Below, piece after piece: positions 24,001-30,000 of a stretch of DNA of 64,000 nt. The stretch covers positions 128,001-192,000 of the forward strand of contig CAWCBP010000014.1 in the NCBI GenBank assembly GCA_963793865.1, written 5' to 3'. Position 1 is the stretch's first letter. Every line of letters starts with the position of its first letter. Made by a program: the position numbers. Source of the stretch: an uncultured delta proteobacterium (lineage in GTDB: Bacteria > Desulfobacterota > WTBG01).

Positions 24001-27000
24001 GGCTGAAGCGGGAGGCCATCTCGACCGGCGAGTTGATTGAGCTGAACCAGGTGCTCATGCCCGGGTGCGTGCTCCACCGCACGGCCTTGAACGACGTTGC
24101 CCGTACCGAAGATCTGACCTTCATCTGCACGGATCGGAAAGAGGACGCAACTCCCGTCAACAACTGGAAGAGCCGGGAGGAAGGCTACGCCGAGGCCCGG
24201 GAGTATTTCAAGAACTCCATGCAAGGACGGACCATGTACGTCGTCCCTTTCAGCATGGGGCCCGTGGGTTCGCCCTTTGCCAAATACGGGGTTGAGCTCA
24301 CCGACTCCATTTACGTGGTCCTCAACATGCGGATCATGACCCGCATGGGGAAGAGGGTACTGGACGCCATCGGCGGGAGCGGTGAATTCACCCGCTGCCT
24401 TCATGGGAAGGCACAGCTTGATTTAAGCCGGCGCCGCATCATGCACTTTCCCGAGGACAACGCCATCTGGAGCGTCAACTCCGGATACGGCGGCAATGTG
24501 CTGCTGGGCAAGAAGTGCCTGGCGCTGCGCATTGCCAGCTGGCTTGCCCGCAAGGAGGGCTGGCTGGCCGAGCACATGCTCATCCTGGGGATCGAGGAGC
24601 CGGGAGGACACACCGAGTATATTGCCGCGGCCTTCCCCTCGGCCTGCGGCAAGACCAACCTGGCCATGCTGGTTCCGCCTGAGGGACTGCGCAGCAAGGG
24701 CTACCGCATCTGGACCGTGGGCGACGACATCGCCTGGCTGCGGATCGGCAAGGACGGAAGGCTCTGGGCGGTGAATCCGGAGTCCGGCTGTTTCGGCGTG
24801 GCCCCCGGAACCAACAGCAAGTCCAACCCTAACATGATGGCGGCCATCAGGAAGAACACCATCTTTACCAACGTCGTGCTCCGCGATGATGAAACGGTTT
24901 GGTGGGAGGGTCACGATGACCCGGCGCCGGTCGAGGCGTTGGACTGGACAGGGAAGCGCTGGTCCCCGGACCTGAAGGACGACAAGGGCAACCCCGTTCC
25001 CGGGGCCAACAGCAACTCCCGCTTCACTGTGCCCATTGACCAGGTTCCCACCCGCTCCAACCGCCTTGACATGCTGGAGGGCGTGCCCATTTCCGCGTTT
25101 ATCTTCGGCGGACGGCGTTCCCGTCTCGCTCCGCTTATCTTCCAGGCCTACAACTGGAACCATGGGGTCTTTGTTGCGGCCTCCATGGCCTCCGAGCGAA
25201 CGGCGGCCCAGTATGGAAAGCAGGGAGAGATCCGCTACGACCCCATGGCCATGCTTCCCTTTGCCGGCTATAACATGGGTGACTACTTGCGCCACTGGCT
25301 CGACATGGGAATGCGCATCCCCAATCCCCCGCTCATCTTCCTTGTCAACTGGTTTCGCCAGGATGATCAGGGAAGATATTTGTGGCCCGGCTTCGGCGAA
25401 AACCTCCGCGTCCTCGAATGGGTCCTCCAGCGCCGGCGCGAGGAGGTGGCCGCGGTGCAGACCCCCATCGGTTATCTCCCCAACGAGGGCGCGCTTGACA
25501 TGACCGGACTCGACATCCCGCGGGAGCAGATGGATCAGCTCTTTGCCGTAGACCAGCGGGGATGGCTCAAGGAATGCGACGACGTCAAGGCCTTCTTCAA
25601 CTCCCTGGGCGATCGCATGCCCCAGCGTCTTCATGATGAGCTGGAGCAGCTCCGCTACCGCCTCCGCCGCTGCTGCGGGCCTCAGGGACGGTTCCACATG
25701 GTCTGGTGATATGTTTTTGATACTATGGTGGGCGCGGTGGGACTCGGTTTGGAAGAGGGCTGAATGACCCTGCTTCATGAGCCATGCAATAAGGAATAAA
25801 GACTGCAAACGGAAAGGAACATAATGATCGCCCGCACGGTTGATACTCTTCTGCGCGACAAAAAAGACGTTCCGGCGGCATTTAATATAATTGCGCGTCG
25901 ATATGACCTTGCAACATGTCTGAGCCAGGGATACCAGCAGGATTTGCAGACCAGCGTCGACCGGATGAAGCTGAAGGGGAATGAACTCGTTGCCGACCTC
26001 TGTTGCGGAACAGGAAAGTCAACCATTGCCTGCCTCAATAATCTTCCCGATGGTACCGTCATCGGGATTGATAATTCAGAGGGCATGCTGCGGGTCGCAC
26101 GGGAAAAACTGTCTGCACAGGTTGAAAACGCAAAAGTGCGTTTCGTTCAGAATGATGTCATGAATCTCACCCCGGATGACGTCCGTTATGACGCAATTTT
26201 CATGGCCTACGGAATCAGGAATATGCCGGACGCGGCAAGGTGCATTAGAAATCTCCACCGCCTGCTCAAGCCCGGCGGAACAATCTGTTTTCATGAATAC
26301 GCCATCAATAAATCCTTCTTCTCACGGCTTTACTGGAGATGCATAGGCTATGGGTTCATACTCCCCTTCGCGGGATTACTAACCGGTTCAACGGCAATCT
26401 TTCGGTACCTTATTACGAGTGTTGAACATTTTCTTTCCCCGGAGGGGTTCACCGCCCTCTTACGGCAGGAGGGCTTTGAAGACGTAACTCATGCTCCGCT
26501 CGTGAGCTGGCGAAAACCGATTATCCACACCTTCCTGGCACACAAACCTTTATCATGACCATGGGCCTCACATCCCTCATCGCACACGCTATCGAGAAGA
26601 AGCTCGGAGGCTACAAAATCCGGCTCAATACCATCGACACCGGACTTCCCGAAAAACTGTCGAAGGAAAAGAGTGTCGGCATTATCGGCGGGGGACTGGC
26701 GGGAGTTTCCGCGGCGCTTTTTCTTGCCGAGAGGGGGTTCGCGGTAAAGATTTTTGAAAAGGAAGCATATCTGGGCGGGAAGGTCGGTTCCTGGCCCGTC
26801 ACCTTTGATGACGGATTTTCAGCTCAGGTTGAGCATGGCTTTCACGCATTCTTCAGGCAATACCACAATCTCCGCAACCTGTTGAAAAAAATCGATGCCT
26901 ATAAAAACCTCATTCCGGTGGATGACTACGTTATTTTTACCCTGAAACACGGCAATTTTGCTTTCAAGGACATCAGCAGCATTCCGATCCTGAACATTCT

Positions 27001-30000
27001 GAGCATGGCCGGGACGGGCATTTATTCCTACACCGACGCCGTAACCAATCCCGGCTATAGGAAAATGATTTCGCTGCTGCGCTACAACCGGGAGAAAACA
27101 TTTGCCCAATTTGACGCGGTTTCCTTTCAGGATTTTGCCGAACGGGTTAAATTGACGCCGCAGATGAAGCTGATGTTCACCACATTCGCGCGGGCGTTTT
27201 TCGCCGAACCCCGGTACATGTCCATGGCGGAGATGATCAAAAGCTTTCACGCCTATTTTCTCAGCAATGACCTCGGGCTCTTATATGATGTGCTTGACGA
27301 CGATTTTGACGAAACGCTCTGGAACCCGGTCCGGCAATACGCGCAGAAATACCGGATCGGGATTTCGCTCGGCACTCCGGTCAGTTCGTTCAGCAAAGAG
27401 GGGAACAGCTTTGTGATCAACGGTGAAAGGTTTGACTACGCGATCATCGCCGCGGACGTGAAGGGAACAAAGGGCATCATGGGCCGTTCCGATTACTTTA
27501 AACATAAGCACCCGGACTTCTTCAATCGCCTGACCGCCCTGAAACAATCCCAGCGGTATTCGGTATTGCGCGTCTGGATTGACAAAGATATCAGACCGGA
27601 TGTGCCGTTTTTTGTTTTCACCGATGCGCTGCAAATACTTGATTCGGTGACCGTTTACCACCGGATGGAGAAGGCCAGCCGGGCATGGGTTCAGAAAAAC
27701 GGCGGAGGAATTTTTGAATTTCATTCATATGCGCTGCCGGACGATTTCCCTGAAAAGGACGTTCGCAACCAGTTTCTCAAGGAATGTGAGGCGTATTTCC
27801 CCGAAATGAAAGGCTGCACCGTTCACTATGAACATCTGCAGATTAGGGATGACTTCACCGCCTTCCATACGAATCTTTATAAACAGCGGCCGGAGGTAAA
27901 AACCGAGGTTGACAATCTTTTTCTGGCCGGAGACTGGGTTAAGCTTGATAATCCCGCGATGCTGATGGAGGCCGCGGTGACCTCGGCGCTGTGTGCCGCG
28001 AATTTGATTTTCAAAGAGGAAGGATTACGGGAAGAACCTGTTTATTCAGTGCCTTTGAAGGGTCTGTTTGCGTAATTCGTCTCAACCGGCGTTGAAGAGC
28101 TTACTTCTTGACCGGCGCGTCGCTCGCTTCGTGAGCGGTGATTGCCGGGGGTATCGGTCAGGGGAAACATATGGAAAAACTGCTGCTCATGGGAAAACGG
28201 CTTCCCCCGCTTGACACCCCCGCCCTGTCCGCGGATCCGGATTGGAAACAGTGCGATCCGGCCTTTATCCGCAGGGCCCTCGACAGGGCTTTGGAGCGGC
28301 CGTCAGGAGGGTGGTACGCCGTAGACGCAACGGGATCACTCACCGATAAACCCAGATTGATTCAAATCAACGGAGAGGAGCTGGTTGCCTACCGCGTTGA
28401 TGGCGCCTCCATAGTGGCGCGCCATGCCTGCCCGCATCTCGGAGGCCCCCTTTCCCTGGGGAAAATCAGCAACGGGAAGCTGGTGTGCCCCTGGCATGGA
28501 TTGAGATTGCCGAGCCCGAACCACGAGCATTGGCAGCCGTTAAAGACCCATGAAGATGGCGTGCTCACCTGGGTCCGGATGGGACCGGACGAGAGCGCGA
28601 CCCCCGCGCCGATTCTGCCGGTTCGGCCGAAGTTCTTTATCGACTCGGTCATTCGCAGGGACGCGAATTGCGAGGCGAGCGGCATTCTGGCCAACCGCCT
28701 GGATCCCTGGCACGGCGCACATTACCATCCGCATACCTTTGCCAGGCTGAAGGTGACCGAAGCAACCCTTGATCTGCTGAGGGTCCGCGTCGCCTTCCGC
28801 GTGTGGGGCCGGTTCTGCATCGAGGTGGACGCGACGTTTCACTCTCCCGAACCGCGGACCATTGTCATGACCATCGTGGACGGTGAAGGCGCCGGCTCCG
28901 TGGTCGAGACCCACTCCACGCCGGCGGCACCCGGCAGGAGCATTGTCATTGAAGCTACCCTGGCAACTTCAGATCGCCCGGGGTTCCGTTACGCCCTGAA
29001 AGCCGCCCGCTTCATCCGACCCCTCATGGCGCGAGCCGCCCACAAGTTATGGATCGAGGATGTAGCCTATGCTGAGCGCGCTTATGCGCTCCAGCAGGGC
29101 AGAATTATTACTTCGTGATGTTCATCCGCCGACTTCTTATTTCATCCAGGGCTATTTTTGCGTCTGCTACGCCATTGGTTCCCTTTCCAAACACCTCGCA
29201 CATAACCGTGTATACCCTTTCAAGCTCCTTGCAAACATACTCATCGCAATAGGCGCAATTCTCCAGCTTCTTTTCAATGCAGCATCTTCTGATTTCGCAC
29301 ATGCTGCAATAGCCGAGATGTTCACCATCTGATAAACAGCCGTCACAGTTTATCTTTTCCGGCCCTATTTCCATACCGAAAAAATCGGACTGTTCCTCAG
29401 CATACTTTTTTCTGAGCGCATCATCATTTTGCTTCTTGCAAATGAATGGCACACACTTTGAGCAGTCTACCCCGCAATATCCAATCATCTTCTCCATGGC
29501 ACTCTCCGGTTCCGGTTAAAGAAAGCTAAACCTCTCTTTGCATTACATATTGAAATAACGGTATAAAAATGAATTGTATCAGTTTTGTAAGGCAGTCCTT
29601 CTTTCCGCGCGGATAATGATGAACGCCAGAAGCACGACAGCCACAGCCATGCTGATGGTGAGGAAAGGGTCAACCGCGGCCATAGGATCGGGATACGCCC
29701 GCCACCGGCCGATGGTTTCAACGCAGCTCCATATGATCACCACCGTGGGAATGGTGTAGCGCAAGGCATAACCCATCTCCTTCGCCTTTAAGAGCCGGTA
29801 TATGAGATAGCTTCCGACAAAGAAGCAGAAGGTGAAAAGACATTTTGTAAAAATTCCCCGCTCCCCGAAGATGGTCGCGTCGTAGGCATAATAGAGGGCC
29901 ACATGGCCGAACCACATGGTAAAGAATACCTTGACCGCGGTGCGCGGGCACCATCGGTCGACCGGGATATCATTCCGCGAATGCTTCTCCAGATGCAAAA

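Follow-up and report, generated by a model that had tools for sequence, protein, structure and literature searches.

The closest described systems are the isorenieratene clusters of Streptomyces, whose gene layout, crtEIBV/crtYTU, was named for S. coelicolor SCO0185-0191. Plasmids of S. anulatus and S. atratus carry crtE-crtI-crtB and a DUF5914 gene, convergent with crtY, a methyltransferase gene and an FAD oxidoreductase gene. Becerril 2018 (PMC5993118) assigns CrtaV to the Rieske non-haem-iron oxygenases and describes CrtaT as a methyltransferase, and the expressed cluster yielded isorenieratene, beta-isorenieratene, 3-hydroxy and 3,3'-dihydroxy forms, and mono- and dimethylated derivatives. 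The proposal made there, of CrtV as the hydroxylase and CrtT as the methyltransferase acting on isorenieratene, was drawn from product masses and not from gene knock-outs. Both crtV and crtT are reported to be dispensable for isorenieratene in S. griseus, and clusters of this type usually stay silent in Streptomyces. That CrtU homologues occur in non-phototrophs, with a resulting weaker specificity of the biomarkers, is already in print in general form.

The window (the whole 64,000-nucleotide stretch analysed, from a Desulfobacterota genome) holds a forward-strand operon of three genes whose products correspond to CrtT, CrtU and CrtV. The open reading frames lie exactly where the preliminary description, with a methyltransferase, a CrtU-type protein and a Rieske-DUF5914 protein at 25824-29118, had placed them, and the Pfam domains agree. 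The operon and its surroundings are as follows.

23823..25709, + strand: GTP-dependent PEP carboxykinase (PEPCK), native, left border of the insert, outside the module (PEPCK_GTP, 508 bits, Pfam)
25710..29169, no strand: segment lacking at the equivalent site of a same-genus genome, operon plus short flanks (comparison with G363)
25824..26558, + strand: CrtT-like class I SAM methyltransferase (UbiE/COQ5 type), 244 aa (ORF and Pfam)
26555..28075, + strand: CrtU-like FAD-dependent carotenoid end-group desaturase, putative aromatic-ring synthase, 506 aa (ORF, Pfam, tree)
28138..29118, + strand: 326-aa CrtV-like protein (Rieske + DUF5914), interpreted as a Rieske non-haem-iron oxygenase of compact alpha3 type (Pfam, model)
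29108..29497, - strand: native 129-aa ORF, right border of the insert, outside the module (homologue in G363)

The methyltransferase and CrtU-like frames overlap by 4 bp, and the 129-aa ORF shares 11 bases with the stop region of the Rieske gene. Homologues of the Rieske/DUF5914 protein begin at residue 12, so a start at 28171 is likelier. Identity to the S. anulatus counterparts is only 35% for the methyltransferase (of the crtY-MT-crtU operon), 31.2% over 461 aa for the plasmid CrtU and 44% for the DUF5914 gene following crtB, and each Streptomyces protein matches only its window counterpart in this genome, the methyltransferase at E<=1e-5. The triad had earlier been presented as a conserved unit; it is indeed conserved, and it is not unexplained, since it corresponds to the CrtT/CrtU/CrtV set known from the classical Streptomyces clusters. 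Among the 41 DUF5914-bearing genome loci of our own sample, a CrtU-like gene lies within the fetched flank at 20 and a methyltransferase gene is also present at 14. Four Myxococcota loci share the order crtI-crtB-MT-CrtU-Rieske. DUF5914 is also fused, in 70 longer proteins, to phytoene synthase (51), a CrtU-like Amino_oxidase (18) or lycopene cyclase (1), and where its gene stands alone (4 genomes) a CrtU-like gene occurs elsewhere in all four, directly after a methyltransferase gene in three. These patterns support the triad as a conserved carotenoid unit.

The middle gene product has Amino_oxidase (83.6 bits, residues 48-485) and NAD_binding_8 domains in Pfam. Tree placement supports its membership of the CrtU/CruE family: it nests within the CrtU/CruE group (46 rows, SH-aLRT 99), away from CrtI and other paralogues, in a third clade of Nannocystaceae, Ignavibacteria and this lineage. 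The three clades form a fork whose branching order is not fixed in this quick LG+G4 search, which has SH-aLRT support only and long-branch warnings and leaves out green-sulfur CrtU. As previously recorded, the nearest named proteins come from Ignavibacteriaceae MAGs (72-75% identical) and relatives carry the JGI label 'isorenieratene synthase'. The accompanying caution that about 31% identity leaves the product open is also justified, since the clade has no characterised member; an aromatic product is thus putative.

The third gene is the only DUF5914 gene of the genome (DUF5914 223.9 bits, Rieske 45.7 bits, Pfam). Residues invariant in 24 aligned homologues include C98, H100, C117, H120, D189, H192, H197 and D308, which comprise the Rieske ligands and an Asp-x2-His-x4-His...Asp iron site. 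A structure model (pLDDT 88.9) matches KshA, dicamba monooxygenase and SxtT/GxtA in Foldseek (E ~1e-13), and VIA-align to dicamba monooxygenase (3gke) gave Z 22.9 and rmsd 3.0 over 264 residues; sequence alone recognises only the Rieske domain. Going by the modelled fold and the iron-site residues, the DUF5914 protein is a true O2-activating Rieske oxygenase. Hydroxylation would consequently need O2, and the objection raised earlier on this point is real for that step. The oxygenase depends on an electron donor as well, and the operon contains no gene for a reductase.

Comparison with relatives supports the earlier view that the operon is foreign to its host and horizontally acquired. On contig C47 of the same-genus genome G363, PEPCK (89% nucleotide identity) ends at L078 position 3439, and similarity resumes at L078 position 3639, equivalent to window position 29170, so that 199 unrelated bases stand in place of 3460 bases of the window; the homologue of the 129-aa ORF (74% nucleotide identity) directly follows PEPCK. 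The operon was found in no other genome of the 401 sampled from the phylum, among which DUF5914 was found in one (this genome) and the CrtU-like protein in two at E<=1e-20. The Ignavibacteria-like origin suggested for the triad fits the methyltransferase and CrtU-like genes, which nest among Ignavibacteria homologues, but not the DUF5914 gene, which groups with another lineage; on the two Ignavibacteria-type contigs that extend upstream, the Rieske oxygenase is a different one, outside the DUF5914 type. Judged by these sequence affinities, the operon is therefore chimeric in ancestry.

The host genome (98.6% complete, 14 contigs, estimated contamination 2.99%) has a single SQS_PSY (crtB) gene, two crtI_fam genes that score 487 and 424 bits against a cut-off of 238, and two adjacent lycopene-cyclase-domain genes that represent a split crtYc/Yd. 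These parts of the full carotenoid pathway claimed earlier are present; the GGPP synthase is less secure, as it passes the NCBIfam FPP-synthase subfamily model (381 vs 275), and fails the CrtE model (345 vs 460), and tblastn of the genome found just one polyprenyl synthase besides it. A crtI-crtYcd backbone is common to class relatives (CrtI identity 61-65%; cyclase in 4 of 13 sampled class relatives), and a backbone pathway to cyclic carotenes in the genome is supported. Reaction centres, dsrA, haem-copper oxidase (COX1) and cytochrome bd were not found in the host genome, which supports a non-phototroph that lacks terminal oxidases, as had been stated. Catalase and superoxide reductase are encoded, which fits exposure to O2.

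The triad is probably a horizontally acquired, chimeric CrtT-CrtU-CrtV-type operon that tailors the ring ends of the host's own cyclic C40 carotenoid, which would be supplied by crtB, crtI and crtYc/Yd. The CrtU-like flavoenzyme would desaturate the beta-ring and shift a methyl group to give an aromatic ring of the phi or chi type, and thus an isorenieratene-like or beta-isorenieratene-like carotenoid. Green-sulfur CrtU works in strict anaerobes, which shows that aromatisation does not in itself depend on O2. In the presence of O2 the aromatic end group would then be hydroxylated by the Rieske/DUF5914 oxygenase (at C-3/C-3' in the Streptomyces model), and the methyltransferase would then methylate the new hydroxyl, though this enzyme is nearest the ring C-methylating UbiE enzymes and O-methylation is accordingly not assured. 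The resulting phenolic or methoxy aromatic carotenoid may shield the membrane when this anaerobe is exposed to O2, which it is not able to respire. Given the roles proposed for CrtV and CrtT in Streptomyces from the products observed there, the pathway is predicted to end in a hydroxy- or methoxy-aromatic carotenoid, in place of the plain isorenieratene- or renierapurpurin-like compound first suggested. With a foreign insert of the Streptomyces isorenieratene-decorating type, this non-phototrophic anaerobe may add to the dark sources of a pigment skeleton that is taken in geology to indicate sunlit sulfidic water.

It is possible, if rather unlikely, that the CrtU-like enzyme leaves the cyclic end group non-aromatic and modifies it in another way, such as further ring desaturation, in which case the hydroxy or methoxy group would sit on a non-aromatic ring and the product would not yield aryl isoprenoids. 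The separate clade leaves room for this, as do the 31-34% identity to any characterised CrtU or CruE compared, the change of 5 of 43 family-specific near-invariant columns (4 of them clade-wide) and a full-text literature search that found no paper joining Ignavibacterium with crtU and no pigment reported for Ignavibacteria carrying such a CrtU. The remaining 38 columns are nevertheless kept and all five changes are conservative, the partner genes are those of isorenieratene clusters, and the deepest member of the clade is an in-frame fusion to lycopene cyclase, as expected of an enzyme using beta-rings. To our knowledge, every characterised member of the CrtU family makes aromatic rings. A triad acting on another isoprenoid, such as a quinone or quinol, is very improbable. 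A set made up of a UbiE-like methyltransferase, a flavoenzyme and a ring hydroxylase does resemble quinone tailoring, and the methyltransferase (Ubie_methyltran, 109.9 bits, Pfam) has its best NCBIfam matches in UbiE/MenG models, though under every one of their cut-offs; however, the genome has a separate UbiE-like paralogue (34%, C8:623102-623740), and both the DUF5914 fusions and the crt clusters of Streptomyces and Myxococcota tie the set to carotenoids.

A mis-binned or mis-joined Ignavibacteria contig, suggested by the affinity of the CrtU-like gene and the estimated contamination of the MAG, can practically be dismissed. The flanks are native, and the local mis-join that the preliminary description had left open is excluded by the independent MAGs L020, in which one 4242-base alignment block covers PEPCK, methyltransferase and CrtU, and L064, which has the identical order, and by contigs from other runs that bridge the MT/CrtU, CrtU/Rieske and Rieske/ORF129 boundaries. 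There is a small chance that the operon is a recent passenger, silent or useless in a host that cannot supply O2, reductase or GGPP, with no product formed. Its absence from the same site in G363, the usual silence of the Streptomyces clusters, the missing reductase gene and the FPP-like score of the prenyl synthase fit such a history, but the three genes are intact here and in relatives of 80-96% identity, are under purifying selection (dN/dS 0.11-0.32 for all three against three relatives) and have GC3 inside the genome's range. Further, the presence of this operon at the same site in L020 and L064 implies persistence through speciation-level divergence.

The preferred reading, that of a CrtT-CrtU-CrtV-type operon, can be set against several known systems. 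Outside the window's own lineage, the closest are the uncharacterised Ignavibacteria-type clusters on contigs L072 and L077 (methyltransferase 57-58%, CrtU-like 60-62%), in which the methyltransferase gene also lies upstream of CrtU and both are also paired with a Rieske oxygenase; that gene is upstream there and downstream in the window, and its product is not a DUF5914 protein (23% identity, limited to the Rieske domain and the iron motif). The alpha3-type Rieske oxygenases (DdmC, KshA, SxtT/GxtA, NdmA) match the whole fold of the window protein (Z 17.7-22.9, ~245-265 residues), with the same Rieske ligands, Asp-x2-His-x4-His and distal Asp, at 13-21% sequence identity; the window protein has a shorter catalytic domain (~170 aa), catalogued as a domain of unknown function, and would act on a C40 lipid. 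Green sulfur bacterial CrtU (chlorobactene/isorenieratene) is of the same enzyme family and, by the figures of the preliminary description, more distant from the window protein than Streptomyces CrtU. The Thiodictyon CruE-type chi-ring synthase (okenone) is likewise a family member, and in cyanobacterial CruE/CruH (synechoxanthin) a synthase of this family works with a hydroxylase/oxidase on the aromatic end group. The CruE-type proteins examined (Calothrix, 650 aa; Thiodictyon, 634 aa) have a Rieske domain inserted inside Amino_oxidase, which the window enzyme lacks.

The Streptomyces isorenieratene clusters (S. griseus, S. coelicolor, S. argillaceus crta) share all three protein types with the window as reciprocal matches: a UbiE-type methyltransferase, a CrtU without the inserted Rieske domain and a Rieske + DUF5914 protein. 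The window has a single T-U-V operon; the Streptomyces layout instead places V after crtB, with T-U behind crtY on the other strand. Unlike in those clusters, the backbone genes lie elsewhere in the genome, the cyclase is a split CrtYc/Yd in place of CrtY, the CrtU belongs to another clade, and the host is an oxidase-less anaerobe where Streptomyces is an aerobe. We propose that the Streptomyces chemistry of aromatisation, hydroxylation and methylation, in that order, may transfer directly to the window triad.

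Three ORFs on one strand at window 25824–29118 form an operon, and their Pfam domains agree with the triad of genes reported for this locus in the preliminary description:

25824–29118, + strand, first gene: UbiE/COQ5-type methyltransferase (CrtT-like), 244 aa; Ubie_methyltran, 109.9 bits (Pfam)
25824–29118, + strand, second gene: CrtU-like flavin amine-oxidase-type protein, 506 aa; Amino_oxidase, 83.6 bits, and N-terminal NAD_binding_8 (Pfam)
25824–29118, + strand, third gene: Rieske+DUF5914 protein (CrtV-like), 326 aa; Rieske, 45.7 bits, then DUF5914, 223.9 bits (Pfam)
Upstream of the triad: GTP-dependent PEP carboxykinase (PEPCK)
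Downstream of the triad, opposite strand: two ORFs without a family, then a response regulator and a histidine kinase

The methyltransferase and CrtU-like genes overlap by 4 bp, and a gap of 62 bp (95 bp if the start is the ATG where homologues begin) precedes the Rieske gene; Pfam annotation found no reductase gene inside the operon. A promoter and terminator scan of 25600–29700 returned no promoter-like site and one terminator-like site, fewer than in shuffled sequences. Profile comparison assigned none of the three proteins to an NCBIfam model, the top match of the CrtU-like protein being HpnE (102 bits vs a cut-off of 283) and the Rieske+DUF5914 protein having zero matches. Elsewhere in the window, at 18649–21532, the genes for subunit B (537 aa) and subunit A (405 aa) of topoisomerase VI lie next to each other, each complete in its Pfam domains; this is an archaeal-type enzyme, found here in a bacterial genome. 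A palindromic, GC-rich REP-like repeat lies at ~23580–23680, between a 252-aa ORF and PEPCK, and its core gives ~190 blastn hits over 12 contigs of the host genome and dozens in a genome of the same genus (G363). The row of genes at 30645–36093 (OmpR-type response regulator, HAMP/PAS histidine kinase, phosphate-selective porin O/P and PstS-like binding protein) looks like a phosphate-starvation block.

Membership of the second protein in the CrtU/CruE family is well supported at the sequence level. The FAD-binding fold is present at full length, with NAD_binding_8 at residues 43–112, Amino_oxidase at 48–485 and a GxGxxG motif at 45–50. In a maximum likelihood tree (LG+G4, quick search; 53 rows, with three partial rows dropped and green-sulfur CrtU not included), 46 CrtU/CruE-type rows split from seven outgroup rows, CrtI and four other paralogues of the host genome among them, at an SH-aLRT of 99, which is the sole type of support calculated for a tree that also drew long-branch warnings. 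The CrtU/CruE group divides at an open fork into three clades: one of the two CruE-type proteins, one that joins Streptomyces CrtU to Myxococcota, Spirochaetia and fused forms, and one of 25 rows (support 100) made up of the lineage of the window, Ignavibacteria-type proteins and a Nannocystaceae protein. To our knowledge none of the 25 proteins in this clade, the window protein's own, has been characterised by experiment. It nevertheless keeps 68 of the 76 near-invariant columns of the two reference clades and, among those columns common to no more than one of the seven outgroups, 38 of 43, with five conservative changes. Both the tree and these columns bear out its earlier description as a CrtU-type homologue, and aromatisation of a beta-ring to a phi- or chi-ring is its most likely activity. 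The deepest member of its clade, 43% identical to the window protein, is the CrtU-like domain of a Nannocystaceae MAG protein (L056 8520–10994, minus strand) in which two lycopene-cyclase (PF18916) domains are fused in frame to that domain.

The third protein has the features of a Rieske oxygenase. In an alignment of 24 homologues (52–86% identical to the query), the ligands of the Rieske [2Fe-2S] cluster (C98, H100, C117 and H120; Cys-x-His...Cys-x-x-His) are invariant, as are D189, H192, H197 and D308. Asp-x2-His-x4-His plus a distal Asp is the iron-site pattern of Rieske oxygenases; the latter four residues fit it and, judged by motif and fold match together, are probably those of the mononuclear iron site. 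A sequence search of the PDB recognised only the Rieske domain, and the catalytic domain was seen by fold comparison. The AlphaFold model (mean pLDDT 88.9, pTM 0.86) has a predicted whole-chain fold of a Rieske domain and a helix-grip catalytic domain, and the top Foldseek ranks were occupied by KshA, dicamba monooxygenase (DdmC) and SxtT/GxtA (E ~1e-13, ~300 columns). VIA-align superposed model residues 55–326 on dicamba monooxygenase with a Z of 22.9 and an rmsd of 3.0 A over 264 residues, and gave Z of 17–21 for other alpha3-type oxygenases. Once the DUF5914 clusters are passed, the language-model neighbours have KshA_C or VanA_C domains. We conclude that DUF5914 is a shortened Rieske-oxygenase catalytic domain. 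On this reading the putative hydroxylation step needs both O2 and an electron donor, and the objection already raised against the locus, that a Rieske partner requires O2, is upheld by the oxygenase fold and the iron-site residues.

DUF5914 is repeatedly tied to carotenoid genes. Among 70 longer proteins matching the Rieske/DUF5914 query, the domain is fused to phytoene synthase in 51 (the named ones from Nocardioides and other actinobacteria), to a CrtU-like Amino_oxidase in 18 and to a lycopene cyclase in one. A CrtU-like gene lies within the fetched flank of 20 of 41 DUF5914 genome loci, accompanied by a methyltransferase in 14 of the 41, with many loci ending at a contig edge; four Myxococcota loci have the order crtI-crtB-MT-CrtU-Rieske. 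All four genomes with a lone DUF5914 gene encode a CrtU-like protein elsewhere, in three of them directly after a methyltransferase, and the lone gene of Nannocystis exedens is found ~1 kb past a lycopene cyclase. A representative-library search added little, with 60 clusters at E<=1e-30.

The host genome (3.85 Mb, 14 contigs, 98.6% complete, 2.99% contaminated) encodes a supply of cyclic carotene. A single, crtB-like SQS_PSY gene on contig C8 sits right behind a crtI_fam gene (487 bits vs a cut-off of 238), and a second crtI_fam gene on contig C1 (424 bits) is followed by two lycopene-cyclase-domain genes (114 and 103 aa) and adjoined by a short-chain prenyl synthase, one of two polyprenyl synthases found. 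The full carotenoid pathway claimed in the preliminary description holds for the SQS_PSY gene, both desaturases and the split lycopene cyclase, but is less secure for the GGPP synthase: the C1 enzyme scores above the FPP-synthase subfamily model (381 vs 275) and below the CrtE model (345 vs 460), so it is ambiguous between FPP and GGPP and the label is an assumption. The backbone genes look native to the host's group, as crtI_fam exceeds its cut-off in four of five relatives tested, C1-type CrtI is 61–65% identical in one same-family and two same-class genomes, and the split lycopene cyclase was seen in four of the 13 further class members sampled and in seven of 401 genomes of the phylum sample (six above cut-off). 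The C1 pigment cluster (8523–13884 of locus L018; crtI-crtYc-crtYd-prenyl synthase) continues into genes for a yfcH/ThyD-like oxidoreductase and for a methionine sulfoxide reductase of fused MsrA/MsrB type and thus adjoins an oxidative-damage repair gene. A Bac_rhodopsin search, made with retinal-type use as a possible purpose of the cyclase, had zero matches, and the control likewise matched no genome.

Two other assignments of these enzymes were considered. Pairing of the SQS_PSY and amine oxidase proteins could point to squalene or hopanoid synthesis (HpnCDE), but that route takes three genes and the genome has one SQS_PSY gene only, beside a crtI_fam gene above its cut-off, and the reading was rejected. 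Equally, the methyltransferase could be a UbiE/MenG quinone C-methyltransferase, yet it scores 152.2 vs the 216 required by NF001244 and 135.2 vs the 158.35 required by TIGR01934. Its position directly upstream of the CrtU-like gene and its UbiE-type class I SAM methyltransferase family (Ubie_methyltran, as in S. anulatus CrtT) are those of CrtT.

The operon appears as an insertion at a defined site. In G363 a single contig carries PEPCK (89% nucleotide identity), 199 unrelated bases and then a homologue of the native 129-aa ORF found to the right of the operon, such that 3460 bases of the window (25710–29169) are without a counterpart. Of the 401 genomes in the phylum sample, one, the host itself, gave a DUF5914 match and two gave a CrtU-like protein, the second being a distant CruE-type gene of another family. 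That gene (L094 675–2612) encodes 645 aa with a Rieske domain set inside Amino_oxidase, as in Thiodictyon and Calothrix, and is a candidate for a second, unrelated aromatic-ring synthase in this sample. In the CrtU tree, an Ignavibacteriaceae group is the sister of the window's lineage (seven rows, support 99), the two joining at support 96, with more Ignavibacteria below, and the nearest named proteins are from Ignavibacteriaceae MAGs (72–75% identical). The methyltransferase is 57–58% identical to proteins of Ignavibacteria-type contigs, compared with 36–42% for Myxococcota and 35–36% for Streptomyces. The Rieske gene departs from this pattern. In front of the methyltransferase-CrtU pair, both Ignavibacteria-type contigs with upstream sequence (L072 1–978; L077 262–1248) encode a 325–328-aa non-DUF5914 Rieske oxygenase, which has its own Asp-x2-His-x4-His motif and is 23% identical to that of the window. 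On one 2.1-kb contig (L074), the 736 bases past the CrtU-like gene hold no DUF5914 gene. The DUF5914 tree groups the window's lineage with unnamed proteins, one from a Lernaella MAG and another DUF5914 locus (L022) in a clade of 12 rows (support 99); the genome of L022 has only a CrtU-like gene of 33–35% identity. Because the ancestry of the Rieske gene is unlike that of its neighbours, the operon is best read as a chimera, apparently of an Ignavibacteria-type CrtT-CrtU pair and a DUF5914 oxygenase from another source. The proposed acquisition of the triad from Ignavibacteria-like bacteria thus agrees with identity and tree for the methyltransferase and the CrtU-like protein, but not for the Rieske/DUF5914 gene.

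The inserted genes are not compositionally anomalous (GC3 of 0.56, 0.63 and 0.71 vs a genome mean of 0.66, sd 0.09), which speaks neither for nor against transfer. The operon recurs with the same neighbours in two independent MAGs (L020 and L064; 78–96% protein identity) and alone on short metagenome contigs (74–93% identity), and dN/dS is 0.11–0.32 for all three genes in three comparisons; occurrence in independent MAGs and dN/dS together indicate an operon that is maintained, not decaying. In four runs from four studies, labelled as metagenomes of freshwater, soil and sediment, contigs span the operon at mostly 95–99% identity and bridge its internal boundaries; the spacer between PEPCK and the methyltransferase is covered in only one of the four runs. 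The closest MAG, L020, has two copies of the 264-aa ORF found after the operon, ~6 kb apart (11164–12004 and 17033–18300), both 91–92% identical to the window's at the protein level.

Searches of the host genome for COX1, cytochrome bd subunit I and the type I and type II reaction-centre proteins gave no match, and dsrA only a 20.6-bit match vs a cut-off of 393, while catalase (645 bits) and superoxide reductase (82 bits) are present. These absences, combined with the two detoxifying enzymes, describe a non-phototrophic, non-sulfate-reducing anaerobe equipped for exposure to O2, in agreement with the earlier account of a non-phototrophic genome without terminal oxidases. Four Rieske hits were found in the genome, and only the operon's protein is oxygenase-sized. 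An O2-consuming step yielding a phenolic antioxidant pigment would fit such a host; under full anoxia the pathway would halt at the unhydroxylated aromatic carotenoid. The 18 natural fusions of CrtU with Rieske-DUF5914, like the Rieske domains set into CruE, raise the idea that the two electrons of the oxygenase might come from the CrtU flavin; hydroxylation would then be coupled to ring desaturation and need no NAD(P)H reductase. Taken in its entirety, the most extended reading is speculative and may well fail: a Desulfobacterota lineage of freshwater sediment and soil, strictly fermentative or anaerobically respiring, with neither terminal oxidase nor photosystem and using O2 only as a co-substrate, would turn an inherited cyclic carotenoid into phenolic or methoxy aromatic carotenoids by means of a chimeric operon, possibly with electron coupling through the CrtU flavin, and would be a dark, anaerobic, in-sediment source of the 2,3,6- or 2,3,4-trimethylaryl isoprenoid skeleton.

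Aryl isoprenoids such as isorenieratane and chlorobactane are taken as the fossil trace of phototrophic sulfur bacteria, and hence of sunlit sulfidic water. An anaerobe of sediment and soil whose pathway is complete and under selection could less easily be set aside as a source, because its habitat is where the biomarkers are buried. Cyanobacteria and actinobacteria are already accepted as alternative sources, but their ecology is used to discount them in marine and lacustrine sediments. Cui et al. 2020 discuss aromatic carotenoids in both groups and the doubt that this casts on their diagnostic value, and Ward and Shih 2022 describe an uncultured phylum, apparently non-phototrophic, that has homologues of CrtU; a prediction of isorenieratene synthesis from genomes of uncultured Binatota has also been published. 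In the library searched, no paper pairs Ignavibacterium with crtU, none of relevance links crtU to a Rieske protein and none mentions DUF5914. The oxidase-less Desulfobacterota host, the insertion at a defined site and the chimeric make-up of the operon are new, as is the fold-based reading of DUF5914, which gives this domain a concrete predicted role in catalysis by a small Rieske oxygenase linked to carotenoid genes. Also new is that the trio of oxygenase, methyltransferase and aromatase has formed at least twice, with unrelated Rieske oxygenases, which suggests that selection favours the decorated phenolic pigment over unmodified isorenieratene.

The trio itself has a close parallel in Streptomyces. 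DUF5914 genes were found by protein search of a plasmid collection on large Streptomyces plasmids, and those of S. anulatus and S. atratus are annotated as a series of polyprenyl synthase, phytoene desaturase, phytoene synthase and DUF5914 protein, convergent with lycopene cyclase, methyltransferase and FAD-dependent oxidoreductase. The same layout, crtEIBV/crtYTU, is listed for S. coelicolor SCO0185–0191, where crtV bears the old label 'putative methylesterase'. Becerril et al. 2018 (PMC5993118) describe CrtaV as a Rieske non-haem-iron oxygenase and CrtaT as a methyltransferase, and report that the S. argillaceus cluster, expressed heterologously, yielded isorenieratene (leprotene), beta-isorenieratene, 3-hydroxy and 3,3'-dihydroxy forms, and mono- and dimethylated derivatives, the dimethylated being the major product. 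They proposed hydroxylation by CrtaV and methylation by CrtaT, and also note that both genes were dispensable for isorenieratene in S. griseus; none of the papers listed by a literature search on dihydroxyisorenieratene oxygenases tests CrtV beyond this 2018 proposal. Given that proposal and the match to the Streptomyces set, the triad is a known module whose putative roles have already been suggested. The preliminary interpretation was right in outline but needed correction as to the known Streptomyces module, the chimeric source, the O2-dependent Rieske step and what is already in print on CrtU homologues in non-phototrophs.

Chi-ring-synthase-type proteins of Thiodictyon and Calothrix, both plasmid-encoded, have a Rieske domain inserted mid-Amino_oxidase: in Thiodictyon syntrophicum Cad16T a 634-aa FAD oxidoreductase adjoins crtY within a carotenoid and puf region (L090 7878–9782), and the 650-aa Calothrix protein (L091 3705–5657) is annotated 'phytoene dehydrogenase Rieske iron-sulfur component'. 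With CrtU-type enzymes the Rieske oxygenase is separate or C-terminally fused, and a Rieske cluster thus recurs with this desaturase family. The window's CrtU-like protein, unlike the inserted forms, has no such domain, as in Streptomyces CrtU. The DUF5914 of the third protein stands behind its Rieske domain at 223.9 bits vs a Pfam cut-off of 27, and its reciprocal S. anulatus counterpart is the gene right after crtB. Against S. anulatus the window proteins are 35% (CrtT), 31% (CrtU) and 44% (CrtV) identical, and in the reverse search (E<=1e-5) each Streptomyces protein matches only its window counterpart in the host genome.
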